DNA of 59,399 bases, filler included, from Sphacelaria rigidula (GCA_964200075.2; 6 parts of 6 records of this genome joined end to end with filler, not necessarily neighbours in it); one strand, 5' to 3'. Numbered from the whole stretch's first letter, positions 19,678 to 55,761 are shown. The notes: generated from the sequence alone by a model not told the origin. Made by a program: numbers and translations.

Positions 19678-19736
19678 TCTAGACTCTTGGGTTGGCGTCG
19701 AGTGGCAACGGCGCTGTAAAACAAGCCACCAAAACC
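19678..19736 (+). mobile_element. 5' head of another LINE copy, cut by the scaffold end
   Basis: ctagactcttgggttggcgtcgagtggcaacggcgctgtaaaacaagccacc is nearly identical to 31414-31465; preceded by a C-rich tract. Confidence 0.7.
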
Positions 19737-19836
19737 NNNNNNNNNNNNNNNNNNNNNNNNNNNNNNNNNNNNNNNNNNNNTTAATTAATTAANNNNNNNN
19801 NNNNNNNNNNNNNNNNNNNNNNNNNNNNNNNNNNNN

Positions 19837-22055
19837 AATTTGCTACTAGAGTAGAAACTCACACAATGCAAGCAGCCAGGCTGTGCATATTTCCAACAGA
19901 CAACGTCCAGAACGTCGAGGACATCCGGGAGTGGCACATGGCCAACAAGATCCTGTTCCACTTCCTGTTCTTGAGTACGGCAGGACCGGCAGCAAGCTTT
20001 CTCCTAAAGTACAAACCGAGACCAGGCATTCTGCCAAACGGCATCGCCGCTTGGAATGGTCTGGTGGGAACATACAAGAACCCTTCACGCCAGCGGTGTC
20101 GAATTATGGCAAAAAGGCTGTCTAACATGAGAATGCAGCAAGGTCAAGACCCGGAGTCTTCTGCAACGCGCTGTTTTCGTTGCGAGATGAAATGGCGGAG
20201 ATGGCTCGAGTGATTACGGGCGACGAGATACTGAACATCATCCTGGATGAGCTGACGGACGAGTGCGCCCAGAGTCAAGTGCTTGTGGAATCGCAAGACA
20301 ATTTCAATCTTGAAGACGCCATGTTCACCATGATGAGGAACATGCTCGCAAACTGTGTCGTAGAAAACGGGCGTTCGCGTGCAGCGAAGGGTCGCACCTG
20401 GGTGATGGCCGCCACAACGGCAAAATACTGCAACTACTGCAAAAAGCCTGGTCATGACATCAATAACTGCTTTAAGCGAAACAACAAGAAGAGCACAAGA
20501 AACAACGGAGGGGGCTGAAGTAACTGGTGGTGCTTCTTGCACAAAACCGGTCTTCACGACATTTCGACCTGCAAGGCGCAACAACACTGGGGCAACGATC
20601 CTGACGATCAGCGGCAACGAGGGCAGCGCGGCCGAGGACCACGTCACAACAGACGACCACGGCAGCAAGGACAATCCCGCTCCAGCGATAGCGGACAAGG
20701 GCGCTTCAGCAACAGCGGACAAGGCCGCTTCAACAACAACAGTGGACACAAGCCGAGCTCAACAATGCAACTGGCGCGCCGGCGACTTCAGCATTACCTG
20801 CTACAGCGACGTCTCCTACGCATCTGGACCATCAAGCAAATCCATCACCAGATCAATGGTTTTTCTGAGTAGAGGGCTCATTCACTTCGACGGTCAAGTT
20901 CAGTGCATAACCGCGCAATCGGCATCGGAGGCGGAGCTCATCGCAATGAACAGCATCGCCAAGCCCGGGCTCTACTTCTCTTCTATGCTGGGGGAGCTAG
21001 GATGGTCACGGCAATGCACCTTCACCCTGTATGCGGACAACCGGAGCTCCCTGACCCTAGCTTCGGAGGCGAACTTTAGCCAGAGGTCGCGGCACATCGC
21101 CGTCCGCTTCGCCGCACTCCGCGAATGGATCCGTCAAGGCATCATCAAGCTAAACTTCATTCCAGGCCGCCACATGTTGGCCGACCTTTGCACCAAGTAC
21201 TGCGTCCACGAGGTACAAGACAGCCTCATGCGGCAAATCCTCCAGGTCAAGTAAAGACGCCAAAACTCAAGGATCAGGCTCCCCACCATCGCCATGGGAA
21301 AGTCCGGGCGGAATCTTCTGTACATCTCGTCCGGAGTAGCAACCTCAGAAGATTTGTGCATACTTTCTGCATTTCCTGAGTAGCTCAATATCTAGGCTAA
21401 CATTGTTGACTTCTTGTAGACAGCATTCTTGCGTTCTTTTCATTTTCTGCATCTGCCGTACATGCTACAGAAGGAAGCGTGAGAGATCTTTGTTCGATCT
21501 CTGTTGGTCGCAAGTGGGAGTAAAATCTTTTGCGTAAGTGTTTTTTGCATCACGATATTCCTCATTGGGGTTACTTTCCCTTGAGATGACTTTCCATTGA
21601 AGGGGGGTGTTGGAATATTAAATGTCAGTCATTGGTAACGACTATCTATCGTGGGTCATCGTAAACAAGTAAGAAATCATTTGAGTTCCAGGAATAGTCT
21701 GCGGTATATTCTGCGGTACATTATGCTTCCAGAACAAGTTGTCGGGGGATTCATCGGGAGTTATTGGTTGTAATACCCCCCGAGTGTTTTAGACGTGTGG
21801 AAGTTCTGGAAGTTCATTAGCTGATCGGTAGGCTCGCACACTTGGTGCTCGCCCACCTGATCATTCCTTCTCTACTACTTTTCTTCTCATACTCTTCTCT
21901 TTCATGAGTTAGAGTCTTCGGCCACATAAGCGCCAAGTTCAACATCTCTATTCTCAAGCCAAGTGACTTGACCGTCACTCTCTGCACCTCTGCATAAACT
22001 GCAGAAGACAGTTGCCACATCGGCATACCATCAAGAGTGAAGCCATATTCTTTCA
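19837..22055 (+). mobile_element. Copia element B, 3' part: frameshifted gag, RNase H, PPT and 3' LTR; PR/IN/RT absent
   Basis: gag homologous to element A gag (LFHFLFLSTAGPAAS...GQDPE; CNYCKKPGHDINNC); copia RNase H (YSD..., SEAELIAM, ADNRSS, RSRHI, LADLCTK) ending at 21254; PPT GAAGGGGGG at 21599-21607. Confidence 0.9.
21608..22055 (+). repeat. 3' LTR of copia B
   Basis: TGTTGG...TTTCA, follows the PPT; ~95% similar by eye to 29143-29593. Confidence 0.92.
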
Positions 22056-24194: not shown

Positions 24195-27100
24195 TTATCT
24201 CCCAAATTCGGTTATAGCCTTCAGCAGTCTCTGATGTACAATTTTATCAAAGCTTTTGGTGAGAAGATCCGCTAATTGTTCTAAAGATCGTACATAGCTC
24301 ATCCTTAGTTATCCGGCTCGAATCATATCCTTTAAATTAAATAATCGTATCGCCAGGTGTTTCGACCTGGTGCTGAAGTTGGCGTTCGAAGACAGATGAA
24401 GTGCGCCTTGTGAATCCGAGTAGATAGTCGCGGGCTCAATAGATGACCATCCAAGCTCTCGTATCAGATTGAATATATACGTTCCGAATTTGCCACATTT
24501 CGAAACGGCGATTAACTCCGCTTCTGTCGTTGAAGTAGCTGTTATACGTTGTAAGCTCGAAGTGAAATCAACTAGTCCGTTAGCCAGTAGTAATAACGTT
24601 CCCGTTGTTGATCGCATTTTCCCCTGAAGCCCGGCATTACCATAGCTAGCGTCACTAAATCCCTTTTAAACCAGATTCTTATTGGAGGTTGAGTACATTA
24701 GCGGAAGATCGAGTTTTCCCTTCAGATACCGAAATATCCGTTTAACTGCTTCTAAGTTTTGACTACTCGGGCTGCTCATGTGGCGTGCTACCTGGGAGAC
24801 ACTTAATGCGATGTCGAATCTTGTGCTCTGAGCCAGAAAGATGAGGCTCCCAACTGTCGCTTGGTACTTAGTTTTCTCTGACGGTTCCGGAAAGGTGTCT
24901 TCAGGCACGTCGTCGACGAGCTGAGTTGGTGTTCCCGGTGTGTGAACTGGATTGGATGACTCCATGCTGAATTTCTTCAGCATTCATTCTACGTACCTAT
25001 GCTGTGACAACTTGAGAGTTCCTCGCGCTTCGTCCCTGATGACTTCTATACCGAAAATATGAGAAACTGGCCCTAGCTCGGAGATCGAGAATCTTGATTT
25101 CAGTGCATCCTGAACCTGTTGCAGTATACTGATTGACGGTCCTGCCATCAAGACATCATCTACATACAGAGTAAGCATCACATATCCCTCATGGGATCCT
25201 TTTGTGTAGACACATGGGTCACTTGCTGTGGCCAAAAAAAAACATTTTCCGTAGCTCCGTATCCATTATAACGTTCCACCGGTTTGGACTCTGGCGCAGT
25301 CCATAGAGCGCGCTTAAGACGCACCACTTGTGGTTCTCCTGTCGTTGGGTCGAACGTCTCGAAGCCAGGCGGTTGTCTCCAGAATACTGTTTCCTGTAGC
25401 TTGCCGTTGAAGAAAGCAGTTTGTACGTCGAGAGCAAAAATAGGCCAATTTTTCGCAGTAGCAATCGCCAATAACAATCGCTAACTTTCTAACCTGCACA
25501 CTGGAGCGAAAGTACTCCCGCAGTTGAGTCCATGCCTCTGAGACCAACCTTGAACCACCAACCGGGCTTTTAAACGCCCGTCGGCTTTGACCTCAAAGAC
25601 CCACCTTGTACCGATAGTGTTGTTGCTGGGAGAGAGCTGGCCGGGATGATATCGGCTGCTTCATGATGTTTTATGCTTGAAGTTCGTCCAGTATGGCTGC
25701 TTTCCATTTCTTCGCATATGGTGAGCTCGATGCCTGTCGATAGTTGGTAGGTGCTGAAATTGACGTGGGCGGTGTAACCTGTTCAACTCCGACGGTGTCT
25801 ATGTAGTGACATACCGTTTCCAGTGTTGCTGCAGCATGTTGACCCCCAGAAGACATGAAAGCTAGTCGCTTTAGCTCACGGGCTTGCCATTTGATAACGG
25901 ATCCAGGAGGATGATGATTGGGACCACCGGCTGAACGCAACCTCCTTTGGGCGATAGGCGGCGCTGTAGTCGGTGAGTCGTCCTCCGTGGTACCGTCCTG
26001 TAGCTGAGCTACACCATCGTGAATATTTATGTTGAAGTTGTTGGTGTCGTCATGTTGTTCCTGATCAACTGCAGATACGTCGGGTTCCTGGATATCCAAT
26101 GTCGAAAACTCTTCATCACTGTAAGGAGCCCCTGTTACTTGTTCGATGAAAGTAACGTTTCTGGAGCTGGATATGTTCCCCGAGTAGCGGTTGTAAATGC
26201 GGTACGACGGACTATCGGAATCATACCCTACTAGCACTCTTTCCCAAGCCTTTTCTTCTAACTTACTGTGACGACGCTCCCTGTGCACAAACGGCCTCGA
26301 GCCGATTGTCCGCAAGGATGATAGCTTCGGTTGCTTAAGAAACATCCGAAAATATGGTGTATCGCCGCCGATGCTCGTGTGCGGTAGGCGGTTGATTAAG
26401 AAGACCGCAGTTGCAGAAAATTCTCCCCAAAACAATTCGGCAAATTCGATTCGTTCAGGAGACAACGTGCAACGCTCAAGATACTCCGCCCGTCTCTTTC
26501 ACTGGTACCATTCTGCTGAGGAGTATATGGGCTGGTGAACTCTTGACGGATACCCGTAGTGTTGCAGTACCTCTTAAAATAGTCCGCGATATATTCACCC
26601 CCACGGTCTGACCGCAGACGGTGTACACGGAGTCCGAAAGGAATAGCCAACTCTTGGATGAACCTGCAGAGCGTAGTTAGGGTCTCATCCTTCGTTTTGA
26701 TGAAGTAGACTACCTTGAAACTCGAGAAGTGATCCCTAAAACTTTGCCATGCAACGGTAGCCCCCCTGCGTCATGGGCGTAATCGGTCCTGTTAGGCCAG
26801 TGCTGACCAGTTGCAGTCGTTCCGGAATATTCGTCGAGTCTACGATCTTTGGGTGGTACTGCTGTACACTTTTATTAAGCTTTCACGTTACACAAGGTGA
26901 CAGTGACCCCTCAAAGTTCACACCTGATTCGGGAGTATTCAGTAGACGGCGCATGACCTGCTCCGCTGGGTGTTCAAGTCGCCTATGCCAAATGTCTGCT
27001 CCTGTCGTGGTAGACAAAGCTGTCGGTCCTGCTCCCGCTGTGGCAGACATGGCTGCTGAAACTCGCGGGATGTCGTGGTGAATGGTTTCTTCAAAAACGG

Positions 27101-28986
27101 CTGACCCGATGCCTTTAGATTCTCCTGACATAATTGTAGCTGTAAGTGCTGAGATGTTATCAATATTACCCGGTTTCCGAGAAACTCTCACGCTGATGTA
27201 CTGTGAGGCTCCGTTGCTGTCACTGTTGATTGGCACTTTAAACTTTCCAAGGTGAATATGGGACTCGTGAGAAAATGTAGTCGAAGCCCCCTCCGCAAGA
27301 GCTTGCACGGGGGAGAATAAATTCTTCCCCATACCTGGGACAATCACGGCTGGGAGCCGAACAGAACGTTGGTACCCCTCAGAGTCAATGACCACGGTGT
27401 TCAGAACTTCTTTTGCTGTACCATGCAGTCGATGGCGTCCCGCTGTTAAAATAGTCATCGGGGAATCGAGTTTGACCACCTCGACCATTTCACGTTTGAT
27501 ATCGGGTAGCCACTGATCATCCAGAAAGTGTCCAGTGCTTCCGCTATCCACTGTCAACTGAAAAGAATTTGATCGGATGTATCAGTGATATATGAACCAG
27601 AACGAAAAGAAAACCCCAAACAGTTTGGTGGTGAAGATGAATCCATCACTGTTGCAGCTGTTGATGAAGAAGTTTGTAGACCGTTGTTGTTCGATGGTGC
27701 GGTTGTAGAAGCTGGATCGGCGACGGCTGTGTTGGCTTGGCGTTGATGTCCGTTGGAGTTGTTGCTGCCGATGTTGCTGTTGTGGTTGCTCCTACTGTTG
27801 TTGTTGCTGCTATTGTCACGGTTGTTATTTCGATGGCGGGGGTTTCTACGACGATAATGGTTATTTTTGTTGTTTCCAGCGTTGTTGGTCGCATTCCCGC
27901 GGTTCTGTTGAGATCTACACTCAGTGTCGTCATGCTTGTCAGTATGATGGAAACTGCACAATTTTACAGGCATGTTCCCATTGCTCTGGCCTGATGTCCT
28001 GGCCTCCCGCAGGTGTAGCAATTTCCACGGAATTTCTGGGGTTGATCCAAAGATTTCGACAGTGATATCACCAGCAGTGATGAATCGCGACTATGCTATT
28101 TTCCGGAGGTATATCTCCGGGGCACGCGATTAGCATACATAGTTCGCATTGTTGTTTCGATGCTCTGAATACTGAGATCTGGATCACGCTCCGCATTGTA
28201 CTTGATGAGGTCATACTCGCTTGTTAAACCTTCGATCACTATGTCAGTCAGCCTTTCTTCGGAAATGGCCTCGCCAATGTTGTCCAGTTCGTCCCGAAGC
28301 TGATACGCTTTGCTCAAGAAAGTATCAGGGTCTTGCCCTGGTGACATAGAGACGTTGTTGAGTTCTCTCATCAACATCCTCATTCTCTGCTTCGAAGAAT
28401 TTTGATCCCTGGAAATCAAAGCTCCCCATGCGCATTTGCCGTGTGGTCTCTCTGAACCCCTCGGCTGGAGTCGCAACAAATCACTCGCTGCAGGACCAGT
28501 TGTAGACAGGTACAAAACGTGGAACAATCGTTGACTGCACCGGTCCCAACTCTCTATCTCAAGCGTGTTAGAAATCTGCCTTACATGTGACACCACGCTT
28601 GGAGAACGAGATTGTTGTGTAGAATGATGCTCTTCTTCAGTGGGTCCAGTCCCGTCCACCGCTGCGATCGTCTCGTCCCCAGTGGTTGCCTCCACCGAAA
28701 AGAAATGCGGTCGAACGGACGACTGCTGGCGGGTGGTTTGAGAATGAGTTTTGGGAGGGCTAAGTCTTGTGGCAGCAGGTTGTAGCAGATGTACCTCAGA
28801 AAAATCTTCTTCGAGTGCCGCAGGGCGTTCGATCCCGTTGAGGATATGCGCAATCCCCGGATGAGTTAAAGAAATGATAGCGCGCGTAGAGCGCATCCGC
28901 TCGACGAATTTTGTTCCGTCGAACTTGTTGATGCTCTTGATGAACGGAGTTACAGATTGCTCTCCCGACATATTCACCTGCCTCAC
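24195..28986 (-). pseudogene. Disrupted copia gag-pol polyprotein
   Basis: Consecutive ORF fragments in PR-IN-RT-RH order, diagnostic of Ty1/copia. Confidence 0.93.
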
Positions 28987-29142
28987 GTTACATTTAATAA
29001 AACGTTCTCTTCACACCTGCAGATCTTTGGGAAAGATCAGGGTTCTTGGAATCTTCATTGTCGCTGCTGTGGCGACCTTGATGTGACACCTCCTCGCTCG
29101 TGCTGACCAATGTTACCTCGATCCGCAGGCTGATGACCTGAA

Positions 29143-29653
29143 TGTTAGAATATTAAATGTCAGTCAATGGTAACGACTACTATCTATCGTAAGCTATCGC
29201 AAACAAGTAAGAAATCATTTTGAGTTCCAGGAATAGTCTGCGGTATATTCTGCGGTACATTATGCTTCCGGAACAATTGTCGGGGGACTAATCGGGAGTC
29301 ATTGGTTGTAATACCCCCCGAGTGTTTTAGACGTGTGGAAGTTCTGGAAGTTCATTAGCTGATCGGTAGGCTCGCACACTTGTTGCTCGCCCACCTGATC
29401 ATTCCTTCTCTACTACTTTTCTTCTCATACTCTTCTCTTCCACGAGTTAGAGTCTTCGGCCACATAAGTACCGAGTTCAACATCTCTATTCTCAAGCCAA
29501 GTGACTTGACCGTCACTCTCTGCACCTCTGCATAAACTGCAGAAGACAGTTGCCACATCGGCATACCATCAAGAGTGAAGCCATATTCCTTCAGGTTATG
29601 AGCGAGCTTCATCAATAAGCAGAGGAAGGGAGTCATCCTACGATAGGGGGGGG
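29143..29653 (+). mobile_element. Copia B 5' LTR (29143-29593), PBS and start of leader
   Basis: TGTTAG...CTTCA followed by copia-type PBS GGTTATGAGC. Confidence 0.92.
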
Positions 29654-29753
29654 NNNNNNNNNNNNNNNNNNNNNNNNNNNNNNNNNNNNNNNNNNNNTTA
29701 ATTAATTAANNNNNNNNNNNNNNNNNNNNNNNNNNNNNNNNNNNNNNNNNNNN

Positions 29754-30613
29754 GTGATGTCTTCAGCGAGTCGCATGAAGGGTGAGCTGCATCTTGCTAA
29801 GATTGTTCGGCACGAAGCTTACTGGCTATCTTGAACGTAACAAGGGATCATTAAAAATGAGGTTGAACACTCAAATGGGGTTGAAGTCGACTTCCGGAAA
29901 GTCACATATTACGTGAAACTGTTTCCCAAAATCAACGAACTGAAGATTTTCATTATCTGTCGAACTTCCCCTAGCTTCCCTTGTCGCGCATTATTACTCA
30001 GGTACCTAGAGCCATTATGTATCTCTTTTCGTCCATTCGAAACGGCTCTCACCAGGTGAGGAGAGTCATTTTTCATCGGATTCACTCTTCTCGGGAAAAT
30101 ATTGTGCCAGAGTAATTTCGAGTCCTGGGAATATTCGCAAGGGGTAAGGAGTTTCCCACCTATGATATTTCCTATTTTCATATCTGCCAAACGTTTCCAG
30201 TAACGGGAATTCTGTTCCGAAACATCAACGGCGGCACTTTATTTCTCATACGAGTATCCTTTCCTTGATCGTTTCGAGAGAGTTCGAAAAGCTCAGGGAC
30301 AACTTTTGATCAAACCCGATGGTAGCGGACGAATACACCCTCTCACCTCATGAAGGCCGTTTCAAAAGTACGAAAAGATGCATATATATATATATATATA
30401 TAGTTTGAGACACCAGAGAAACAATGTGCGACAAGACCAGCTAGGGGAAGTTTTAACAGACACGTGAAATCTTCAGTTGGTTGTTTTTGACAAAACTGCT
30501 TCACGTAAAGTGTGACTTCGGAAGGCGACTTCACTCTTATTTGAGTGTTCAACCTCATTTTCCAGGACCTTTTGTATGTGGATGACAGTTTCCAATGAGT
30601 TGCTTCATTTTCT
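29754..30613 (-). mobile_element. C-tailed retroposon fragment split by a MITE
   Basis: 29754-29839 and 30575-30613 are contiguous parts of the element; a G-run lies at its 5' side. Confidence 0.75.
29840..30574. mobile_element. MITE with ~170-bp TIRs and TA flanks (Tc1/mariner-like)
   Basis: aaaatgaggttgaacactcaaat...acttcccctagct is mirrored at 30405-30574; TA at 29838-39 and 30575-76. Confidence 0.78.
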
Positions 30614-31769
30614 AGCGCGCGCGCGGGGGGGGGGGGGGGTGGGCACATTTTTGGTTCATAACAGTCGTTGGAGCAGGAGGGGGGGGGGGGGGGGGAGAGA
30701 GTGGTGGGAGGGGACAAAANNNNNNNNNNGTGTGGTGTGGTTTTTTTTCATATCTTGCACACCAGCCCGCAGAGCCCTGCGGCCGGGGTGCGCCCTCACG
30801 ATTGGCGTACCGGGTGCAAAAAACAAAATACCTTGTAGCACACCGGCGAACCGGTGGTACGACAGCCCAGTGCGAAATAGTGATGGTGATGTTTATTTTC
30901 TTTTGCATTTCGTTCGTTTTGTGCTCTTTCAAGGATGTATCGAGAAATGTGAAGGAACGTATCTGCTCACGAGTATTTTCTGTACGCCGCGAACGGGTAA
31001 AGGTCGACAATACAAGGAGAACTGCAGTAGCCTCCATTCGCATCGCTCTCTCGTGCCCATCCAATCGCAATTCGCCCTCCAATCAATGGAGGCAGCCATG
31101 TGAAAACCTCGCACTTGAAACGGGTGCTCCTAGCGGCCGCCACTGGTCGTGTTTCACTGGCACCCGCATTGCTGTCGCACTTGGTGTCCGATAACGGGAG
31201 GGTGGTTTGCGAAACGTGAATATATGGTTCACCGCAGTCCGCACCGGGCTACGAGGACGGGGGGTGCTACACCAAAAAAAATTACGGTATTTGTGCTTGT
31301 CCACTCAAATTGAACGACGACTTTTTTACCTACTGAGGACAGTTGTCATTGGTTAGCCAAAACAAAACCCTGGTACAACGAAACGATAAACAACCCCCCG
31401 CTCGCTCCCACCCCTAGAATCTTGGGCTGGCGTCGAGTGGCAACGGCGCTGTGAAACAAGCCACCAGAACCTAGATATAAAATGTACAGTCACTGTAACC
31501 ATACCATCGACCGCCACTAGACAAAACAAAGTCGCGGACCGACGGACACAACAGACATGCAAAAACCCAAATAACCGTTGTTTCACCTCCCCGGAAGCAC
31601 ACAAGATGGATATAGACATGATATAACAAAGTTTCCCTTTTGTTTCAACTTCTTCCTTTTTCCTTCCTTATTCTCTGTGTTTTTCTTTTTCTTTCTCGTC
31701 TCTTTCTTTTTCCTTTTCCTCTTTCTCTACAGATTTTTCCCGTCCTTGTTTTTTTTTGTTTTTCTCCAC

Positions 31770-32502
31770 TACCATAGCACAGCACGGGTATAGACGTAAA
31801 ATAGAGAAGCCAATCGTATTTTACGTTTAACCTACCATAACGCAGCTCGGACATAGACATGAAATAGATAAGCTAACCCTCCTGATTCTTTGACCTACCA
31901 TGACAAAGCCCGGGGATGTACATACAATAAAGAAGCCAACCACCCTTTTTCTTTAACTTACAATGACACAGCACGGACATAAGCATAGATCAAAGAAGTT
32001 AGCCCTCCTGTTTCTTTAACCTACCATGATACAGCCCGGACATGGACATATAACACAGCACGGACATGGGCATGGTATAGAGAAGCTATCCGTTCTTTTT
32101 CGTTAACCTACCATAACAAAGCCCGGATAAAGACATGGAATGAAGCAGCTGACCCTCCTGTTTCTTTAACCTACCATAACACAGCGCGGACATGGGCGTT
32201 GAATAGAGAAGCACGCCTGCTTTTTTTTTAGCCTACCTAACACAGCGCGGATACAGACATGAATGGGAAAAGCTAACCCTCCTTTTCCTTTGACCTACCA
32301 TAACACAGCCCGGACATAGACATGAATTGAAAAAACTAACCCTCACTTTTCCTTAATCTACCATAACACAGCCCGGACATAGACATGAAAGCAGCTAAAG
32401 CATCCTTATTCTTCAACCTATCATAACACAGCCCGGATAAAAACATGAAATGAAGAAGCTAACCCTCCTTTTTCTCTACCCTGCCATGAGACAGGCCGGA
32501 CA
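31770..32502 (+). repeat. Tandem array of ~12 diverged ~62-bp units
   Basis: Approximate consensus TTTAACCTACCATAACACAGCCCGGACATAGACATGAAATAGAGAAGCTAACCCTCCTKTTTC; unit starts near 31770, 31830, 31893, 31955, 32018, 32105, 32168, 32231, 32292, 32355, 32415, 32478. Confidence 0.93.
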
Positions 32503-35500
32503 TAATAGCGAGAAAAAACATAATATCTGCTTCCCTATATCGAGACGTGAAATATCCGAGAATCTTCCCCCTATATCATAATAAAGGTAAGACAAGAACC
32601 AACCCAAAACCTAGACATGTAAGTGATAGCGTACAGGTTGACCACCTTACATGCAAATCGAGAATACAAAATACATTATAAGTACGGATAAGTTAGGGTC
32701 ACCACCCCTTCCATCTTAAATTCACAACATGGAGATTGGGGTCTCGTGGTGAGATACCCGTGAAACCTTACCGGTTTCCAGTGGGCGGTGGAAAAATCTG
32801 GTCAGCCATTTTCCTAAAATCTCCGATGTTAGGCGCAAAAGCTGATGAAGGGAAGGGGTGGATAATGCATGACATACACGCCAAGACCTACTGCACTCGA
32901 GAAACAAATGCCTCACCAATTATCGACCACATGACCTAAGAGAAGGAGCACCAAGTGGTACGTAGACTTCCTAGAGATCTTGAAGAATAGAAGCTGGTAC
33001 AAAGTGTGGGGGAATCGTTGGCCAAGCTCTCGGCAGCGAAGGTCTACTCGAAAGCATCAGTGGAGTAGCGACCCATAGTGAAACGTAGACGGAGGGATGA
33101 ATGATGTACGGGACATCCCGATGTGAGTAAGACCCTGTGTTATGCAACCCGCCCTTAAACCTTACACGGTGAAAATGACCTCACTGGAGGAAAGTAACCA
33201 GTACAGCAGCAGGGCAAGAAGATACAAGATACGATCGTGGGACGCCTGAATGCTTTACCATGAAGATCGCCTGGCACAAACGTGGGACACTAGTGTCAAA
33301 GGTGTTGAACTTGACTTCAGGCTACGAGCCCGTATTGGAGGCATTGTTTGTTGTCGCTAAGCCAGCAAAAGAACTAAAAAACATCAGACTCCCAACAAGT
33401 ACTAGAATCGGTATATCCTAGTCCCTTGACTACATCCCACCACAATAATCAAAACGAACAAGTTGGAGCACTCTCGAAAACGATCGAGAGAGAAACGGTA
33501 AGGAAGGGCGTATGGAGAGGTAAAGGGTGGGCGGGTAAAGGACTAGTAGTGCTGGTATTCGGAGTCCGTAGCGATATGACGAGAATAGAGTTTAAAGGTG
33601 ATTGCAATGGAGTTCGGTTATACTGTTTGGCAACAGGAAAAGTAAAGCGGGAGGGGGAACACCTCCGAGTCACGCTACACCAGAGCGCAAGCAAGGAGTG
33701 GGAAAGGATAGAGACAAGTAAGGTGTTAGCATGGGTTAGAAGGGTAGGATGGGGATTATGCATAGTTTATGGAATAACAAACCTAAGACATGGTGCACGG
33801 GTAAACGGAGGCAAGGGGGGACAGGAACAGTAAGTGCCCGGAAAGGGAATCGGGGGACATGGCGGCCTGAAGCAAATTGACAAAGACCAAACCGGAACCG
33901 GGAAGCAAGATCAGGCAAAGAGAAGAAGAAGTAAAAGCGACGAGGAGAGAACAGTAGACAAGAGGAGAGCAGAAATGATTCGGAAAGGAAGTTGAGAATA
34001 GGATCGTGGAACGTGTGTCGATTCGGCACACACAGGCAAGCGCAAAAGACTAGAGATAGCGCAACCAGTAAGAAACCGCGACCTAGATATAGTAGGAACC
34101 CAAGAGTCATGGGAGAAAGAGGAGGCGGGAATAGAGGGCAAAGTTGAGGAATACGCATGTAAAGGGGAAAAGGGGAAGGGACAGAAGGACAAGAGCAGGG
34201 GAGCGGGAGGAGTAGGATTCTTAGTCAAGGAATACCTGTGTGACATTATAGCGTGATCGATCCCACGAAATTCGACAGAAACATATGGATAAGGGTACCA
34301 GGAGAGCGGGGAACAAAGGACTCCTTCGTAGGGAATATCTACATGCCCCCAGAATCGAAGATTAGGGTGAAAGATACACAGCGTAGGTTTGGAGAGATAA
34401 AAGCAGATAATAACATAAGTATAAAAGGCAAGGAGAAGTAATGTCAGTGGGAGATGTTAATGCAAGGGTAGGAAGAGCAGGCTAACCGGGTGATATCATT
34501 GGGCAATATGGGGAAGATAAGAAGAACACGAATGGGGTAGAAATACTGAGGTTCCTTGAGCATAACGAGATGAAGACACTGAACGATAGAGCACAAAAGC
34601 TAGAGGCGCAATAGACATTGACTAGAAGATGCAAAGACGAGAGAGAATGCTCCGTTCTCGACTATATAGTGGCAGAGCATGGAAGTAGTGAAGAAATAAT
34701 AGTACATGTATGCCCGGAGGACGCGGGAACCACAGATCATTGCCTAATATGGACAAATAGCCAACGGACGAGAGAAACAAAAAATAGGCGGGGTAGGAAG
34801 TTGTACAAAAGGAGAACTGATGAAGTAGATATGGAAGAAAAATAGCAAGAGTTCCAAGAAGAGATGGCCAAGAATGCAGTGAAATTTCTCGAGCTGTTGG
34901 AACGCGTAGTAGGTGCAGTTGATACCCAAATGGAAAGAAACTGGGCAGGAGCGAAGATTATAGAAGGATGGGAGCAGTGGGTCAAGAACACAGGGTGTAA
35001 ATTCATAGGGAATGTACTGATCGTATGCAACAAAGCAGTAAGATGGTGGGATAAGGAAGTAGAAGAGGCTACTTCGATGTATAAGGATAAGGAGAGAGGC
35101 CCACGCGAGATGGATGTCGGGTAAAACTACGACAGGATGGGAGGAGCATACTTGAGCTCGAAATGAAGTACAAAATATGGTACAGCAGAAAAATAAGGGA
35201 GTATTAGACGATGTAGTGAATGAAACAAATGAAGATTTCCATGGCGGGATGAAACAAATGTGGGTAGGGACAAAAGGGGTAACGGGAAACCAGGCAGGAA
35301 AAGGATAGCCACACTCTGGGCACAGAACGGCAAAATGGTCAGTAGTTTCGAAGGGGAAGAGAGAAGAAGTACTAGCTCTAGTAGAGCACTACCGTAAACT
35401 AGGAAGGCCAAAAACTAACACCAAATTCGACAAGGAATTCGAAAAAAGAATCAACGAGTGGGTAGAAGCAAATGTGGAGACGTCGAAACGGCGGGATAGT

Positions 35501-36236
35501 GGCTCGAAAGAATTGTAGAGAGAGTTTACCAGAGATGAAGTAAAGGAGTGCGTAGCTATACTCAAGAACAGAAAGGCAGCAGGGGCAGACTTAACAGTGA
35601 ATGGATTTCCAAAGTACGGGGGAGAGGGAATGAGCACCATGATGGCTATGCCGTACAACTGGATCTGGGAAAACAAGTACACACCCAAGAGGTGGAGAGA
35701 AGGAGTAATAGCCAACCTTTTCAAAAAAGAAGACAAGGCTGGCCCGAGAAATAACGGAGGGATAACGCACTATACTGAGCACGGTAGGGAAAACATTTCT
35801 CAAGATTCTGAACGATAGAGTAGGAGCGGTGCTAGAAAAAGGGAGGAAAAAACAGCGAGGGAGAAGCAGGATTTAGACCAAACCGTAGTTGTGTAGACCA
35901 TGTGTACACGCCACATGAGATTATTCAGGGTGGGAAAGACACCGGCCTGACAGCGTACTGTTTCTTCCTGGGCGTGCAAAAGGCATATTACACAGTAATA
36001 CTATGGAGAAATGGGTTGTGGAAAACGTCGTTGGAAGTTGGGATCAGAGGAAAGATTCGGAGAAAAGAAGACAGAATGTGCCCAAAGTGTCATGATGCTA
36101 GATGGGGAAATACGGTAGAGTTCAAATGGAAGTGGGGAGAAGAAAGGCTGCCGATCATACACCAGTATACATACATCGGCCTAGAAATCACAAGAAACTG
36201 TCGTCGGAATGCACACATGAATAAAGTAATAGAAAA

Positions 36237-36667
36237 GAATACGAGATGTTACAAATTGAGAATGGATCTTTCATTAGGGATGAAAACCCGGAGAATTAAA
36301 ATCTTCGTATTAACACCAAATCTTCGAAGTATGTTTCCATTTCTTTACTTGCTAGTGGCTATTGACAACTACTACACGCTATACAAATTTGGATTTCGAT
36401 AACCGAAATGTCGAGGTCCTACATGAAAAGCCAATGTTGGCGTCCGATCGGACACCCAAAATCCCCCACAGTTGGTGTTTTCCCTAGCACCCCGACATTT
36501 CGGTATCCAAATCTAAATTTGTATGGCGTGTGGCAGTTGTCGAAAGTTACCAGCAAATTAAAAAATGGAAGCATACGTGAAGATTTGGTGTGGATACGAA
36601 GCTTCTAATTCTCCGGGTTTTCATCCCTAACAAAAGTTCCCTCCTCAATTTGTAAAATCCCGTGTTC
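36237..36667. mobile_element. Foldback MITE (~200-bp arms) inserted in the LINE
   Basis: ttagggatgaaaacccggagaatta versus taattctccgggttttcatccctaa; ccgaaatgtcg versus cgacatttcgg; LINE reading resumes after it. Confidence 0.85.
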
Positions 36668-36691
36668 AAGGCACAGATAGATAAGATGGAC

Positions 36692-36954
36692 AACAACGTT
36701 CTCGTGATATTGAGAGCAGAGCGGGGATCAAGAATGGCTTTGATCCCTTGCTTTAACCTAGCCGATTTTTCATTCCGTGTGTGCTTTTCTTCACCGTGTA
36801 CTTCCAGCTACACGTCGGTATCCTACTCTCGATAACAAGGAAAGAATATCGGACCTCGTGGAGGGGCATTTCGGAACTGACACGGTTCGTTGACTTACTG
36901 ACAGTTTTTAACTCTCAATCGTATCCTCTACCCCAAATCTTACAAAATATTGTG
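36692..36954. mobile_element. 263-bp insertion in the LINE with GGAC duplication and imperfect TIRs
   Basis: Removal restores K-M-D-V-I-L-R-D-S-H-L-D; GGAC at 36688-91 and 36955-58. Confidence 0.7.
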
Positions 36955-38977
36955 GGACGTGATCCTCAGAGACTCGCACCTAGATACTAGGATTAAGATA
37001 CGCATCCTGATGAATGTGATTGTGCCAAAGCTGGAATATGCAGGAGAAGTATGAGAGGGCAACGGGAAGTTGGTGAAGAAGTTGGAAGCAGTAGATATGG
37101 TGGCAGATGAGAAAATACTTGGACGCTCGAAAACGACAAGTAACACAACATTGAGAGCAGAGTCGGGCATGTACTCACTTAGAATAGATTTATGAGAAAA
37201 TTGCGATGGCTACATAGCGTAAAGAACATGCAGAGAAAAAGAGTCAGCTAAGGCTGTGTGGGAGAAAATGACGAAAGGGCAAACTGGAAAAAGGTGGGAT
37301 AGAGAAGTCCAGAAAGTATGGAAGGAGATGGGACGAAACCAAGACGAACTACTGTCGAGAGGTGGAGGCGCGGGGTACAAGACAAAAGTAAGAGATATGA
37401 TACAAATAAGGGCAAGAGAAAGTAGACGAGGAAGAAAACCCGAAGATGTACAGGGGGGTGAGAGAGGGGATAAGGATGAAAACATATATATCTGCATGGC
37501 CCCGTGGACGCGTCGAAAAAAATAAAACTGCGATTTCGGGTGGGAGACGTGGACCTGCCAGAAAGAAGGAAGAGTTACCCCAGTCGTCTAGAGGAGGAGG
37601 AAGTAGATGCACACAATCACCCCATGTGGCAAAGCACCAGAAACCAGAACTCATATAATGGCAAGATGTGAGCTATACACGGAGGAACGGGACGTTGCTC
37701 GAGGGAAAATACGGGACGTGAATGAAGGTGACATGAAATCGTTTGATGCATTGAACAACAGTAGCGAGAAAACGATGGCTATACTAGGAGATAGATGGTG
37801 GCCATAGACGGTGAACCAGGACGGGGACAAGAAATGTGAAAAAAAACGTGTAGTGTATCGAAAAAACGTAATGATCACCTCAATGTTGGAGGTGTCTCTC
37901 TCACTAGGAGCGGGAACGGTGCTCCATCTTGAAAGCGATGCGTGGTCAATGGTCAAACGACGAAGGCAGGCAACATATGAGTACACCCCTCCCGCGCGCG
38001 CACTGCCCCTGGTGAAAAAAATCTTATCGTAGTACTGACCTAAACCTATTGCAGGATACATTTTTAGTGCATCCGACCAAATACATGAAAGATGCTCAAG
38101 GTAAGATGCACACCCTGGAGCACCCTAAGTTATCAGGGTACTTGAAGTACGCAGGACTCTGCAGTACGCAGTATAAACAGCCGGAAATACACAATATTCT
38201 AGGGTAAGCACGGTATCGACACCCCGAACCACCCTCCTCTGTCCCCTACTTCACCCCGAACACCTCCGACACATGAGCTACCAATAAATTCATCACTGGT
38301 ATCGTATTCGCTGTCTGTCGTCTGTCGTGGCATACGTTGAACCTAAAAATGGTGCATGGGGTAGGGTGCGTATCGTTTTGTATCCTGGGGTACCAGTATG
38401 TGCAATATCAAGTATTCGAGGGTACGAACGGTATCGAGTGCCGATAATACTCACTCCAGGGGACGCACGGGATCGACAGCCAAAAACACTCACTATCATA
38501 CGGTATACCCAGGGTATCAATTGTCGAAAATAATCAAGCATTCCGAAGTACCCACGGTATCGAGACGTTCAAGTCCTCTCATATGTGCCCTACTCCACCC
38601 TAAGCACCTTTGAAACACACCCCCTACACAGCAGCGACGGTATCCTTCCGGATCCAATACAAAGCGATACAGTTGACATACACGAAGCTGAAGTGGGCAC
38701 TCAACCCCACGTACTAAACGACAACGTGTGCTTCAACGAGCGCTTGCCGGGTCCTCCACAACATAGTATCTACTCTTGACCCGTTGTGTGCACCTGTACC
38801 AACGAGGGGGGGCAAACAGATCGTTCCGCACGCTTCAAAAATGTACTTTACATGGAATCGAGGATTAAGGAGAAGTGAAAACAATCGGAATTTGCTCCCA
38901 ACACCAGGCTACACAAAAACAAGATTGCATAAAAAGATTGAAACTACTAGTAAGCACGATAGGAGATGGGGCTGTAG

Positions 38978-39124
38978 TTAGTCCACATCCTCGTCTTCGC
39001 TATTAACCAAGGGTAGATGGCGAGCGCCGCGCCTTGCATGAGCAACCCTACTAGACCCTGGCGGCGACGCAGAACCCAGATCTGCGGCGATCTCCTCCAG
39101 TGTTTTCCCGCGGGTTTCCGGCAC
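38978..39124 (-). CDS. Last exon of an MFS sugar-porter family transporter
   Basis: AAG|GTG acceptor; VPETRGKTLEEI matches the sugar-porter PETKG C-terminal motif; TAA stop. Upstream exons lie beyond the scaffold end. Confidence 0.82.
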   Translation of the reverse strand: MPETRGKTLEEIAADLGSASPPGSSRVAHARRGARHLPLVNSEDEDVD

Positions 39125-39513
39125 CTTGTACAGCGTGATCGTACGCGGGAGAAGCCAGGTCAAGCATCGCGGGGGGGATATCAGCACAATTATCAAACGC
39201 TGCGCGTGTAGCATTAAAGTAACTGTTAACCCCTGGGAGAGATGACAGGAGGTCCTCCGACGTACATCGCAAGAGTCTTGAGCATAGATCAAGGCTATCC
39301 GTGAGACTTCTTCTGGGATCTACATCAGACTCTCCCTGCCTTTGCCTCGCTACAGCACACGTTCGGAAGGTGACCAAAACGCAGGCTTTCAAAGCCAGAA
39401 GATAACCACACACGCAAGCTCGGACGGTAAAGAGCTATCGAGACAAACGACATTCCAGTCCTACTCTCGCACATCCGAAATAGTACATGAAACCATCATG
39501 CGATCAGACAGAG

Positions 39514-39521
39514 GACACACA

Positions 39522-39555
<34 letters not shown>
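39514..39555. repeat. (CA)n microsatellite
   Basis: Direct reading. Confidence 0.9.
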
Positions 39556-39558
<3 letters not shown>

Positions 39559-40039
39559 GCACATGGGGGNNNNNNNNNNNNNNNNNNNNNNNNNNNNNNN
39601 NNNNNNNNNNNNNTTAATTAATTAANNNNNNNNNNNNNNNNNNNNNNNNNNNNNNNNNNNNNNNNNNNNACTGGCGATTGCCTTGGGCTTTTTCGCCTGC
39701 CACGACTCATTATATCTAGGATTCAAAGATACTTGAATCCGCTGCACACTTTCCACAAAAACACTGTTTGGAATATAGAGTGACTCATGGGCTTACGGGC
39801 TGATTTGTCATCGACAGTCCTGCCATGTCTCAATCCAGATTCTGACTCTTGAAAAGTTTCCCTTGATCGGGTCCGTCCCATCGCATTTGTGGAAATGTAT
39901 TCATCAGTCATTGCACTGAAGCCGAACAATGGTGTTTGACGGCCAGAAACACCCTCCCGATGACCAGGTATGTACTCGTATCGCCTGATGACACCACCTG
40001 ACACCAACGCTTTTGCTATCGAACTTTCGACTTCGGAAT

Positions 40040-40239: not shown

Positions 40240-41747
40240 GATTTCACCCACAAATGGCGCTACCGCTGAACACGCGGGGGGCGTCGTTCGAACGCATCCA
40301 CCCTGCCAATCCTTCAGCTTCATGACCCCTCCCTCCCCCCATCCCCTTTGCTGGGAATGATACCCCGTCACAGAGAATTCTTAGCTGACAGGGGGTGTTA
40401 TCCAAAGTTTGAGTTATTTGTGGCCGAACAGTGATCTATCTTGACACCTGACCGGTACCAATTCAAAACCAACAAAAGCTGGTAGTACCTTGTGTTTTTC
40501 TTGATGAGACTACAAACCCCCCGAGGAAAAGTACACGCAAGAGTTGCGTCCTGCCGTCAGGGTCCGTCAGATCCCAATGACGATACCCCTCAACACGTGG
40601 GGGGAATCGTTTGAACGTTTTCACCTTACCTTGCTGCCTTATGGCACCTCCCGCTCCCCCTCGTCTTTCGCGGAGATGATCAACGCATCCTCTCCCCGAA
40701 CACATGCACTCTGGAAGCTGGTGTTATCCGAAGTGTTAGCCTTTTGCGGTCGGGAAACAATGAATCTGAACACGTGATCGGTATCAAAAGAAAGCGAACT
40801 GTACAATCTACCCTAACTAATGGCACCTTCCGGTTCTCTCGACGAGACTAAATACATACTTCGAAGAATCTTATTCCGTCCCCTGAATAGGTACGCGATG
40901 GGGTCATGACCGTCAGGGCCCGTCGAATACGAATGTGTAATGTGGAGAAGGCTATATTTTGTTCAGGAATCGAACAGTTCACTCATCGACCAAGTGCGCG
41001 CTCACTGGTTCAATGGTCAAATATCCGCTTGTGGAACAAAAGGTCGGGAGTTCTCGTCTCTAGACGATCGATTGTTGGAGGAAATTGAAATGTGAAGAGT
41101 GAACCTTGCGACGGGGAAGGGCCCCCAGAGATCATTGATGTGTCATTCCGGGACGGACCACACAGCATATTTTTTGTTCAAGAAGCGAGCAGTTCTCATA
41201 CTGAACACGTGAGCGCTCACTGGTTCAATGGGCAAACGGTTTGCTTCCTGAACACGCTCCTGAAGGCGAGTGAGCGGTCACTAATAGGTATACACCTCAC
41301 TTGCTGATTCCAGACTACCGTACCTTCCCCCCTCCTCCCCGAGTCATGCAAGATTATGAGTACACCCACTCCCGCACGATTAGGTGAACATATCTTCTCC
41401 ACAGCCCTCATCAGGGGGGTGTTATCTGACGCATCAATCGTTTGCCGGCGGACTACATGATGCTTCGAAAGGCATGAGAGGTACGATCAAAACATCGATA
41501 CCCTTACTAAGTTTCCCTAAAATAGTGAGGGGCACCACCGTCCATTTGCGACAGACCACGACGGTGGATACCACCCCTGGGGACAGCTATTTTCATTTCC
41601 CGGGAAACCTATGGGCCAACCTCCATATGAGACTCCACCAATGCTTGGAAGATGTTTCGAATTTTGATGATCTCTTGAGTGTACTGAAGCGGCCGAACAA
41701 AAGCTGGGCACCATAAGCCAGCATGTTGATCTAGATTCAGATGAATT

Positions 41748-47592: not shown

Positions 47593-48854
47593 CTGCGAGA
47601 AAAATGGAGCATAACAGTGCATGTCGCATATTTTTTCGTCTTGATTGGTGCCAAAAGTCTGTTTGGTGGAGCAGCGAAATTATTCTTCTAATCTACTCGT
47701 GGCCAGAAGGGGCAATCTTCTTTTTCGGGCGTTTATTATCTTGTGACAGCTTTCAATATCTCCTCCATGGTCTTGAAAGGCAAATCTTCTCGTTTTCTCA
47801 TAAATTGAGGCTCAATTTCTCAGCGTTCTTGGCAGCGGGTGCCTCATGTAGGGGAACTTACCTCAAACGGAGGGACCTCCTTGTTACTTCTCCAATTCGA
47901 TGGTTGGGAGACGAATCTTTACCCTAATCCCTCGTCTAACGCCATGTCCCTTAGTCCCCCGTCTACCGTTCCGTGTACGGTTTCGTGAACCAGCCAGCCA
48001 ACGGAAGGCAGCCCCGAAGCACGCCTGGCCAAATCACCTAAAGTCCTAGGACTTCGAAATCGGAATGCAAGAATCATATTGCCGGTGCTGTTTGTTGCGC
48101 GCAAACCCGCTGTATAACCACCGTTGTTGCAAAAATCAAGTAGTGTGTATGAGTATGCGTTTGCCAAATGCGAAGAAAATATTCAGAAAGAACGGTGGAG
48201 AGAAAATTGCGTCATTTTTCTGCCCACAACATACCCTGACAATTCCGTGTCTGCAGTCTCAGACGGTGAAGGTATTATGTGTATTTGTTGCGAATGGGTC
48301 ATTTCGGCCTGCGCAGAGCACGTAGCCAGGATCAGAGTTAAGAGAGAGTATCCCGAGAAACGAGGCTGAACAGAAAAAATGAGTCTCAACCCTGGAACAG
48401 TGCTTTCCCTACGCTGAGAATAGATATGCCAAAGGATTTTTTTTGTCGGCCTAATCTCCCTCGACCGTGTGGAAGCTGTTTACCGCCTTTGATCGACTAT
48501 GTAAGCCCACAGCGCTGAGCGGAAGAGTGTCATTATACCCTGGTTTTGGGGTCACGAATTTTCATGTATTCAGCGCTTCCGCTTCACGCTGGGGACTTAC
48601 CAAGTCGGTGAAAGGCACTGTAAGAGTTTCCACGCGATCGGCGGCCATTAGACTGACAACCGTCATCGGGTATAACTATTTTTCGTGAAGGAAAAACACT
48701 GCGTATAGGTTCAGACTCATTTTTTGCTCAACTTTATTTGTCAGGATTCTCTCTTAGTTGCTCTTCTTACTTCGCTTGGTCTGGACACGAGGCGAAAGGC
48801 AGAAGAGTTTTCGGCGACTATCGCGCTCATTCTCCCCATCCCCCCCCTACTATA

Positions 48855-49484
48855 CCTGGTCCGGCGAAAACCCGGCGTGCCCCGTCCCGGCTTTGTAGGG
48901 GGGACCCCTATGGGGGTTGGCGTCGATTGGCGATGTCGCTGTAAAACACGCCACTCACTGCGTAAGCTAGGCAACCAGGTTACCTTTTTTTTGCGCGCTT
49001 GCGTTTTTGAGGTTACCATAGTGGTGGCCGAGCTTGATCATATTATGTGGCGTGGGAGAACCTCAACTTCGCGTAAAGGGGGTGATCGTACCACGTAGTG
49101 TTTGTATGGTGAGTCACCCATGATGCAGTGTGGAAAACGTGACTGACTCTGAAAGTGACGATACTCGAAAAAGAAGCAGCTCATTGGAGGCTTTCATCCA
49201 AATGCAAGATAATCAGTAGGCTTCGGACCGAACAACCTTAGCAGGACGCAGGTCACTCTTCATTCGAATCGCCGAACACACCACGGCGCTTTGGGTTGAT
49301 GATTGACTGCGAGTTTGGTCCGGCGAAAACCCGGCGTGCTCTGTTCCGACCTTGTAGGGATGCGAGGTCAGTGGTCATATGACTATGACATGCATGATCA
49401 TGAGTAACCCCCCCCACCCATGAGGCAGTGTATAAGCTATGGCTGTCTCTAGAAGTGGCGATACCAGATAATAAAGCAACTCAT
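48855..49484 (+). mobile_element. Tandem cluster of the C-tailed retroposon (fragment, full copy 48908-49415, fragment)
   Basis: The full copy aligns end to end with 58873-59399; units are separated by C-runs. Confidence 0.88.
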
Positions 49485-49584
49485 NNNNNNNNNNNNNNNN
49501 NNNNNNNNNNNNNNNNNNNNNNNNNNNNTTAATTAATTAANNNNNNNNNNNNNNNNNNNNNNNNNNNNNNNNNNNNNNNNNNNN

Positions 49585-52390: not shown

Positions 52391-53094
52391 ACCAAACGCT
52401 TGCGGGCGCGTGGATCAACAGCGTAAGAGTTGTTGTACACTCTTTTTTGGCGAAAGAAATTACGAGAAAAAACATGCTTGTGTAGACTTGATTGATTGTC
52501 GCTCTCGAAATGACCTCCCAGGGATCCAACCGTGGTCACATGATACACGTACCCAAGGAGAACAAAACCGAAACACTCGCTGAAGATAAAGAAGGAACAG
52601 AAAAAGTCGAACAGAACGACACAGTAGACTTAAAGCGTAAAACGAAAAATACCGACAAAAGGCAAAGCACAGAAAGAAATGGCCAATCTAGAACAGAGGA
52701 AAAGGAAAAGAAAAGGAAAAGAAAAGGAAAGGAAAGCAAGAAAAAAAGACGAAAGAGTATGCCCAATATTTCACTGTATTTTGTTTATTCCCTGAGCTAC
52801 TATATCACGTACGCACGTACGTGTTCCCGATTCGTATACTGTTTTTCTCCCCTCTCCTCGATTGTTCCACCACCGTCCCCCATACACTTATCCGAAAAAA
52901 GGCACTATTCGTCCGAACGAAGACGCGTCTTTATCCATGGGGAAAAGAAATGTCGGCGTATCAAATAAATACGAGCATTCATCCAAAAAGGAAGCGCGTC
53001 TGATCCCAGACGGAACGGCGTGCTATCCTGAACGACAAGCACGTTCTACCCCAGAAGGAGGCACACTGTTGTTGATCGCTACAGGAAGCGCGGT

Positions 53095-55671: not shown

Positions 55672-55761
55672 CTGCATCACGTTGCGATCCATTCGAGGGG
55701 TCATACAGCGGAATCGACGGGGTTGGGATCGAGAGTTCGGCGCCGGGGAGCGCGCGCCGGG

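Follow-up and report, generated by a model that had tools for sequence, protein, structure and literature searches.

A probable RTE-X-type LINE with a C-run 3′ end and a short element sharing both of its ends in the brown alga Sphacelaria rigidula

We analyzed a stretch of 59,399 nucleotides (nt), filler included, from the genome of Sphacelaria rigidula (GCA_964200075.2), referred to here in its entirety as the window, in which a long element at 31409–37993 is accompanied by a family of ∼500-bp repeats. The two share a head of ∼40 nt and a tail of ∼75 nt, have unrelated middles, and end 3′ in a run of C. Judged by its sequence features, the long element is very probably a dead, roughly full-length retrotransposon without long terminal repeats (LTRs), that is, a long interspersed nuclear element (LINE), with an endonuclease (EN) of the apurinic/apyrimidinic (APE) type, of the same sort as those curated in Ectocarpus under RTE-X; in the same reading, the ∼500-bp repeats are its non-autonomous partner and the counterpart of the Ectocarpus family RTEX-N1.

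The window consists of six blocks of 9818, 9818, 9817, 9816, 9815, and 9815 bp, in descending order of length, between which lie five linkers of 100 bases, each N44-TTAATTAATTAA-N44 (9819–9918, 19737–19836, 29654–29753, 39570–39669, and 49485–49584). The blocks look like small unplaced scaffolds that were sorted by size and concatenated; they are not contiguous, and adjacency across a linker therefore carries no meaning. The LINE lies entirely within block 4 (29754–39569). The coordinates of all features of the LINE and its partner are collected in Table 1.

Table 1. Features of the LINE and of the short element in the window, with the evidence or remark belonging to each.
Feature	Position	Strand	Basis or remark
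LINE 5′ head	31409–31471	+	BLAST; core 31424–31464 common to the short element
Second LINE-type head	19674–19736	+	92% over 63 bp to 31409–31471; cut by block end
Presumed 5′ untranslated region	31472–33497	+	∼2.1 kb from head to first protein match; low-complexity stretch and tandem array
Decayed single ORF	33498–37980	+	N-terminal region, EN, RT, C-terminal Cys/His motif; tblastn of P0001
APE-type endonuclease region	about 34000–34675	+	mapped from P0001 Exo_endo_phos, aa 170–392
Reverse transcriptase region	about 35735–36190	+	core missing; mapped via P0001
Internal deletion site	36105–36115	+	∼98 codons lost (P0001 aa 865–962, including FADD)
Foreign insertion in ORF, ∼0.7 kb	36277–36955		P0001 collinearity gap between 36276 and 36956
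3′ module common to the short element	37919–37985	+	last ∼20 ORF codons, stop codon, 5 nt GTACA
LINE C run CCCCTCCC	37986–37993	+	3′ junction; window sequence
Second LINE 3′ end, 5′-truncated, 220 bp	57535–57755	−	BLAST 78% to 37766–37987; tblastn
Full-length short element A	48914–49415	+	C8 end
Tail fragment, 45 bp, before element A	48856–48900	+	directly preceding copy
5′-truncated short copy after element A	49415–49484	+	adjoins element A
Full-length short element B	58880–59399	+	C run of at least 18 (59382–59399), cut by window end
Tail-only copy, 103 bp	58769–58872	+	directly upstream of element B
5′-truncated short copy	53855–54058	+	CATCCCCCCCG on both sides
5′-truncated short copy	55766–56773	−	interrupted by ∼650-bp TIR element 56070–56719
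Short-element pieces	9616–9818 and 9919–10007	+	either side of linker
Mini-copy, ∼24 bp (final tail bases)	41347–41370	+	motif scan; within C-rich tract
Short-element fragment	29754–29833	−	cut by block start
Short-element fragment	30572–30615	−	5′ junction preceded by C15, then GCGCGCGCG (minus strand)

The long element and its coding remains

The longest open reading frame (ORF) on the plus strand of the LINE spans at most 188 amino acids (aa), and its coding content was followed through an intact protein of 1360 aa, P0001. A search with a 99-aa reverse transcriptase (RT) fragment of the LINE (35519–35818) gave two matches from 33 candidates, and P0001 is 70% identical to this fragment (E = 1.6e-31). 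Pfam recognizes Exo_endo_phos at aa 170–392 of P0001 (E = 3.4e-12) and RVT_1 at aa 740–989 (E = 9.8e-31), its sequence contains the catalytic motif FADD and a C-terminal Cys/His motif, and its nearest solved structures in the PDB are human L1 ORF2p and R2 proteins, in the RT part only (E = 6.6e-21 and 8.8e-20). Residues 1–1359 of P0001 are collinear with 33498–37974 in alternating frames (tblastn), indicating frameshifts. When P0001 aa 560–1360 were used as a query, 138 proteins were obtained at E ≤ 1e-20 among 7213 candidates; among the best 120 of these 138, the close relatives that are named all come from Ectocarpus sp. CCAP 1310/34 (P0004 with 57% identity, P0005 with 47%, and P0006 with 71% over 57% of the query).

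Read through P0001 in this way, the element has a single EN-RT ORF with a minimal 3′ untranslated region (UTR), an apurinic-type endonuclease N-terminal to the RT, and an RT domain, of which this copy has itself lost the catalytic core (aa 865–962). The loss is seen as two adjoining tblastn pieces, with aa 527–864 ending at 36112 and aa 963–1017 starting at 36109. In or at the insertion that interrupts the ORF further downstream lies a foldback of ∼430 bp (36237–36667), whose halves are 77% complementary as judged by an inverted self-match, with no second copy in the window. Given the frameshifts, the RT-core deletion, and the ∼0.7-kb insertion, set against the intact P0001, we regard this copy as a dead single-ORF EN-RT element. 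Self-BLAST shows neither LTRs nor terminal inverted repeats (TIRs) between its ends, and the related copies are 5′-truncated with C-rich flanks on both sides, in keeping with the truncation and variable target-site duplications (TSDs) of LINEs; exact TSDs are unreadable within homopolymers.

The ORF runs to a TGA stop codon at 37978–37980, which is followed by GTACA and then by the C run, leaving 5 nt between stop and C. The second LINE 3′ end, at 57535–57755, ends in ...AATGAGTACG, followed by CCTCCCATCCC. A tblastn search of the window with pieces of the LINE ORF, excluding the LINE itself, gave 3′-end matches only.

Upstream of the ORF, the presumed leader contains a T/C-rich low-complexity stretch at about 31630–31760 and an array of 63-bp tandem units at 31769–32504, in which Tandem Repeats Finder (TRF) counts 3.6 copies at 31826–32050 and 7.3 copies at 32050–32504. 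We infer that this leader belongs to the LINE from the one copy at hand together with the consensus lengths listed for Ectocarpus RTEX-1 and RTEX-2. The head and the array (31409–32504) could instead be foreign, in which case a 5′-truncated LINE would lie beside or inside another non-autonomous element and only its 3′ end would be shared with the short repeats. Such an arrangement would be compatible with the single copy that joins head and ORF, with the absence of any tblastn match of P0001 upstream of 33498, with the age of this LINE copy, which already carries one foreign insertion, and with the entry for RTEX-1b_Ec32, whose “divergent 5′ end” (PMC12477816) would make 5′ ends within the group exchangeable. 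We nevertheless consider it unlikely. Neither a C-rich junction nor a tail motif was seen in 31472–33497, as compared with 8 of 12 C-rich 5′ junctions in the family, and the second LINE-type head matches the first over bases that the short element lacks. If ORFs of the size of that in P0001 (∼4.1 kb) are assumed for the Ectocarpus elements, their listed lengths of 5.5–5.9 kb leave leaders of 1.4–1.8 kb, and homology between the 5′ ends of RTEX-N1 and RTEX-2 was noted independently by the curators (PMC12477816).

The shared ends and the short element

In the window, the short element is represented by two full-length and nine partial copies, in addition to a mini-copy of 24 bp. We compared parts of the two full-length copies with LINE 31409–37993 by Smith–Waterman alignment, with 100 dinucleotide shuffles of each query as the control. 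The heads of the two copies match 31424–31464 and 31427–31464 with scores of 47 and 36, against shuffle means of 20.2 (standard deviation, sd, 1.9) and 20.6 (sd 2.5), and their tails match 37920–37993 and 37919–37993 with scores of 49 and 58, against ∼21.7 (sd 2.2); none of the 100 shuffles reached the observed score in any of these comparisons. BLAST gives a corresponding picture, with 83% identity over 41 bp between 48914–48954 and 31424–31464 (E = 4e-6), 88% between the same short-element head and the second LINE-type head at 19689–19729 (E = 8e-9), and 79% over 61 bp between LINE 37934–37993 and the short-element tail at 9945–10005 (E = 1e-6). The terminal motif CATGAGTACACCCC, allowing at most 3 mismatches, was found 12 times where 4.6 occurrences were expected, and 12 was reached in 0 of 100 shuffles.

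The middles of the two copies (∼370 bp) behave differently, with scores of 24 and 24 against shuffle means of 24.7 and 24.2, reached by 67 and 63 of 100 shuffles, respectively; since these scores are at shuffle level, we consider the middles unrelated to the LINE. The same result bears on the possibility that the short element arose from the LINE simply by loss of internal sequence, as RIME did from ingi. The two shared ends do lie at the very termini of the LINE and keep its order, as such an origin would require, whereas a middle with no similarity to the LINE on either strand is not what it would leave behind, and we regard it as very improbable. A middle taken from the leader of a different, unseen LINE subfamily may be the remaining source under a deletion origin. 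An abundant ∼500-bp element with a head and a tail resembling those of the LINE and an unrelated middle, forming with it a pair of autonomous type and non-autonomous partner, had been proposed in an earlier note on this DNA, and the shared ends and unrelated middles bear out that structure. The same note began the LINE head at 31424, which holds for the core shared with the short element; the two LINE-type heads, by comparison, are alike from 31409 on.

The shared tail is coding in the LINE. The frame-1 read-through of the LINE ends ...GAPSXKRCVVNGQTTKAGNIX, to be compared with the C-terminus of P0001, ...GAPSRKGCVVNGQMTKASNK, and because this frame runs to the TGA close to the end of the element, the tail corresponds to the last ∼20 codons of the LINE ORF. 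A candidate 8-bp stem, TGGCGTCG...CGNCGCTG, lies inside the shared head, for which RNAalifold, run on 4 sequences, gives −10.3 kcal/mol, with both partners altered in 2 of 12 pairs; 4 sequences and 2 changed pairs are too few to lend this stem covariation support. The RNA consensus of the tail (8 sequences) has −4.6 kcal/mol, with both partners altered in 1 of 12 pairs. With so few sequences and so little covariation, we claim no structure for either end.

As for the origin of the head, Rfam gave no match at its gathering threshold in the whole window, and none at E ≤ 10 either in the short element (48850–49430) or in the LINE head region (31380–31780), and ARAGORN found no tRNA gene. A known self-cleaving ribozyme in the shared head (HDV-like or hammerhead) was thus rejected, a simple hairpin being all that is predicted there, as was a head of the tRNA, 5S, or 7SL type transcribed by RNA polymerase III (Pol III), which defines a short interspersed nuclear element (SINE) in the strict sense. 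As neither program found such a head, we do not class the short element as a Pol III SINE of the classical kind; its 3′ end, on the other hand, is that of a partner LINE, as in strict SINEs.

Several copies are head-to-tail neighbors that abut through a C run (48856–48900/48914–49415/49415–49484 and 58769–58872/58880–59399), and the tail-only fragments that precede the two full-length copies (at 48856 and 58769) start within 3 nt of the same element position. These two cases could reflect a terminal direct repeat of ∼100 nt or a minimal tail unit, and recurrent stops at the CCGGCGAAAACCCGG hairpin could be an alternative source of the common start. The two pieces at 9616–10007 lie in different blocks and are therefore not shown to form one copy.

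The short copy at 55766–56773 is interrupted by an element of ∼650 bp (56070–56719, minus strand) with TIRs TAGAGCTCGGRAATGGT... and an 8-bp direct duplication CTTGAGGC, which looks like a small non-autonomous DNA transposon; an 8-bp duplication is, we presume, as in hAT elements.

C-rich junctions and neighboring features

We defined a junction as C-rich when a window of 8 nt with at least 7 C lies within 20 nt of it, in element orientation. By this measure, 8 of the 12 5′ junctions and 7 of the 8 3′ junctions are C-rich, compared with 0.88% of all positions on both strands. C-rich tracts thus flank both ends of the copies, and for this reason at least part of the oligo(C) stems from the target site or its duplication. 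The C-homopolymer tail of the earlier note holds up insofar as 3′ ends do carry C runs, and has to be qualified insofar as such runs are also found at 5′ junctions; to call it a C-rich end and target suits the run better than to call it simply a tail. For the Ectocarpus RTEX-1/RTEX-2 group, too, a (C)n 3′ end is recorded together with a C-rich TSD.

The stronger claim that the C run is purely target, with the LINE homing site-specifically to C/G tracts and its RNA ending in ...GTACA, so that “oligo(C)-tailed” would be a misnomer, is possible, although we find it doubtful. It would account for C-rich tracts on both sides of copies, for the mini-copy at 41347–41370, which splits a C-rich tract (CCTTCCCCCCTCCTCCCC...CCCACTCCC), for the CATCCCCCCCG found on either side of the copy at 53855–54058, and for the curators' terms, TSD “C-rich” and, for RTEX-2, “(C)n termini/TSD” (PMC12477816). 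The same curators, however, list RTEX-1 with “(C)n 3′”, and 3′ runs in the window are often longer and purer than 5′ runs (at least 18 C in element B, and C10 at 9998–10007, the 3′ run of a short-element piece). Head-to-tail pairs joined by a C run would also fit template jumps between C-ended RNAs.

The window contains 26 homopolymer runs of C or G of at least 7 in 59 kb, about half of which touch recognized copies of the LINE or its partner (examples of runs are 17915–17927, C13; 22985–22994, C10; 46796–46808, G13; and 30679–30695, G17); the remaining runs could be empty targets or the ends of other C-ended families. Three junctions have a short (GC)n stretch, GCGCGCGC, directly next to their C run: at 37994–38001 in the 3′ flank of the LINE, at 30616–30624 in the 5′ flank of the minus-strand fragment ending at 30615, and at 55745–55753 in the 3′ flank of the minus-strand copy starting at 55766. 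This may represent a target preference or untemplated addition.

An inverted pair at 50225–50249 and 50418–50446, made up of TACGATAG with C9 and AAAA and of its complement with G12, brackets ∼170 bp with an N10 gap, and may represent a TIR element or a further C-ended family, or else have arisen in assembly. A resembling sequence, CCTACGATAG followed by G8, closes block 3 (29636–29653). A second C-tailed family ending in TACGATAG was considered and rejected, as an alignment of six flanks of C/G runs showed no such family.

Block ends cut the second LINE-type head at 19736 and the short copy whose end is at 59399, and another four copies besides; in all, 6 to 7 of the 12 block ends lie inside copies of the LINE or its partner (9818, 9919, 19736, possibly 29653, 29754, 49484, and 59399). 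With this share of block ends falling in one family, the repeat apparently breaks the assembly here.

Beyond the LINE and its partner, block 1 carries a host gene of four exons on the minus strand (6540 to 1502), encoding a VLRF1 (bVLRF1 in Pfam) and ankyrin-repeat protein that is collinear with proteins of 718–729 aa from three Ectocarpus species at a per-exon identity of 46–81%. Ectocarpus supplies the best relatives of this gene as well as the named ones of P0001, which places the host among the brown algae or close to them, though outside those Ectocarpus species. Remains of a Copia-type LTR retrotransposon lie at 25671–29010 (minus strand; Pfam Retrotran_gag_2, gag_pre-integrs, and SH3_retrovirus), and a putative gag-like ORF, likewise of Copia-type remains and read by eye, at 19860–21254 (plus strand). 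An ORF at 52492–52968 (plus strand) weakly resembles the POP1 C-terminal domain, just below the Pfam cutoff (E = 6.5e-5), and may be a host exon.

Possible mechanism and relation to known systems

L1 uses T runs and poly(A) for target-primed reverse transcription (TPRT). The simplest reading of C runs on both sides of copies would be TPRT at C/G homopolymer tracts. An intact master copy would encode a single EN-RT protein that recognizes the ∼75-nt 3′ module, comprising the end of the LINE ORF and GTACA, and the partner, carrying a copy of this module, would be mobilized in trans. Once the endonuclease had nicked a C/G homopolymer tract, the nicked strand would anneal through its G run to C at the 3′ end of the RNA and prime reverse transcription, and staggered cleavage of the second strand would leave C-rich tracts on both sides, with frequent early termination giving 5′-truncated copies. 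Each insertion would in turn add a C tract, allowing later copies to settle head-to-tail beside earlier ones. The ∼40-nt shared head would be a second borrowed cis module, for which a role as a promoter or a 5′-end signal is a guess.

Somewhat beyond this, we put forward, tentatively and as an idea that may well prove wrong, that the partner parasitizes two cis signals of the LINE, a 5′ hairpin module of ∼40 nt and a coding 3′ end of ∼75 nt, and that the family makes its own landing sites by way of fresh C tracts, for which both the endonuclease and the priming of reverse transcription would have a preference. This proposal is not stated in the Ectocarpus annotation notes (PMC12477816). Copies would under such a regime build head-to-tail arrays, and the ∼100-nt tail-only unit may be the smallest unit able to move, or else a direct repeat at the termini of a full element of ∼610 bp.

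Non-autonomous partners that share both ends of their LINE are known from trypanosomes (ingi/RIME and L1Tc/NARTc). RIME arose by plain deletion and has an A-rich tail, in contrast to the element described here, with its C-rich ends and a middle unlike any part of its LINE. In stringent LINE/SINE pairs, such as UnaL2/UnaSINE1 or RTE/Bov-B and their SINEs, the partner copies the LINE 3′ end. The present pair resembles these in its very short 3′ UTR and in a short terminal repeat in place of poly(A), and differs from them in that the repeat unit is a single C, no tRNA, 5S, or 7SL head is present, and a 5′ module is shared as well.

The closest match is found in Ectocarpus. The earlier note knew of no description of this system and named an already catalogued family as a refutation; at the level of the system this is the case, in a paper of 2025 (PMC12477816, Genome Biol). 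Its Supplementary Material 3 lists RTEX-1a_Ec32 as “single EN-RT ORF; (C)n 3′” with 5867 bp and a “C-rich” TSD, RTEX-1b_Ec32 with 5511 bp, and RTEX-2_Ec32 with 5582 bp. The non-autonomous RTEX-N1_Ec32 (604–607 bp, >6000 copies) is the most abundant family of Ectocarpus. Over the final 60 bp it shows 83% identity to RTEX-1/RTEX-2, the annotation credits its 5′ end with “weak homology to 5′ of RTEX-2_Ec32” and notes that the element “can be present in tandem”, and the curators found no origin for its 5′ region. RTEX-N2 (188 bp) has the same 3′ tail. As the “Repbase synonym” column is empty for the RTEX rows, that paper seems to be the first curated description. A full-length “RTEX-1” has also been reconstructed for Saccharina japonica (PMC4421812).

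Compared with these entries, the S. rigidula LINE has in common with RTEX-1/RTEX-2 its single EN-RT ORF, (C)n 3′ end, and C-rich TSD, as well as a long leader within a total of a few kb, copies that are often 5′-truncated, and a high copy number, and the named relatives of P0001 are Ectocarpus proteins. It differs, in a comparison by description, in its length (∼6.6 kb, or ∼6.2 kb when corrected for the insertion and the deletion, against 5.5–5.9 kb), in the 63-bp tandem array of its leader, and in its host species. The short element, for its part, agrees with RTEX-N1/RTEX-N2 in having no recognizable Pol III head, in its tandem copies and C-rich flanks, and in belonging to the most abundant family, and with RTEX-N1 in a 3′ end shared with the LINE (61 bp at 79% here, 60 bp at 83% there) and a weak 5′ homology to the LINE 5′ end (PMC12477816). 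Its length agrees with that of RTEX-N1 only if the tail fragment at 58769–58872 is counted in, 58769–59381 then measuring 613 bp.

Turning to C ends outside this group, a literature search for C-tailed LINEs elsewhere found no relevant description: the poly-C run in PMC9942856 belongs, according to the part of that text available, to the TIR of a DNA transposon, the available excerpts of PMC4421812 and PMC5753468 do not describe RTE-X tails, and a bioRxiv preprint on brown-algal 3D genomes (10.64898/2025.12.07.692804) does not mention RTE-X.

Several points weigh against our assignment of the LINE and its partner. Pfam recognizes no family in the three read-through frames of the LINE, and in eight fragments of its ORF it gives only Exo_endo_phos (E = 0.23) and SUR7 (E = 0.41), with the former below the cutoff; because the LINE's own frames thus have no significant match, its domain assignment depends on homology to P0001. 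Head, 2-kb leader, and ORF are joined in a single copy, the other head being cut after 63 bp. Four of the 12 5′ junctions fail the strict C-rich test, although three of these are still visibly C-rich; the fourth, that of the LINE fragment at 57755, lacks a C tract altogether. C residues at the 3′ end of the RNA are a supposition made from genomic DNA, which is compatible with a templated C tail as well as with pure target sequence. The short element, at ∼500 bp, is shorter than RTEX-N1 with its 604–607 bp, and its orthology to RTEX-N1, like the RTE-X label and the orthology of the LINE to RTEX-1/2, is presumed from shared features.

Taking these points into account, we still favor the assignment to an RTE-X-type LINE and its partner. 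As a discovery it carries little weight, given that a C-ended RTE-X LINE with a partner of ∼600 bp was already curated for Ectocarpus: the C end, the shared 3′ ∼60 bp, the weak 5′ homology, a head without known origin, tandems, and C-rich flanks are all part of that description (PMC12477816). What is new here is a decayed member from another brown-algal genome. Because the system is thereby found in a second, fairly distant genome of this lineage, both the C-tract habit and the two-ended partnership are probably old in it, and the concrete junctions with C tracts on both sides bear on how a LINE uses a C homopolymer where L1 uses poly(A).

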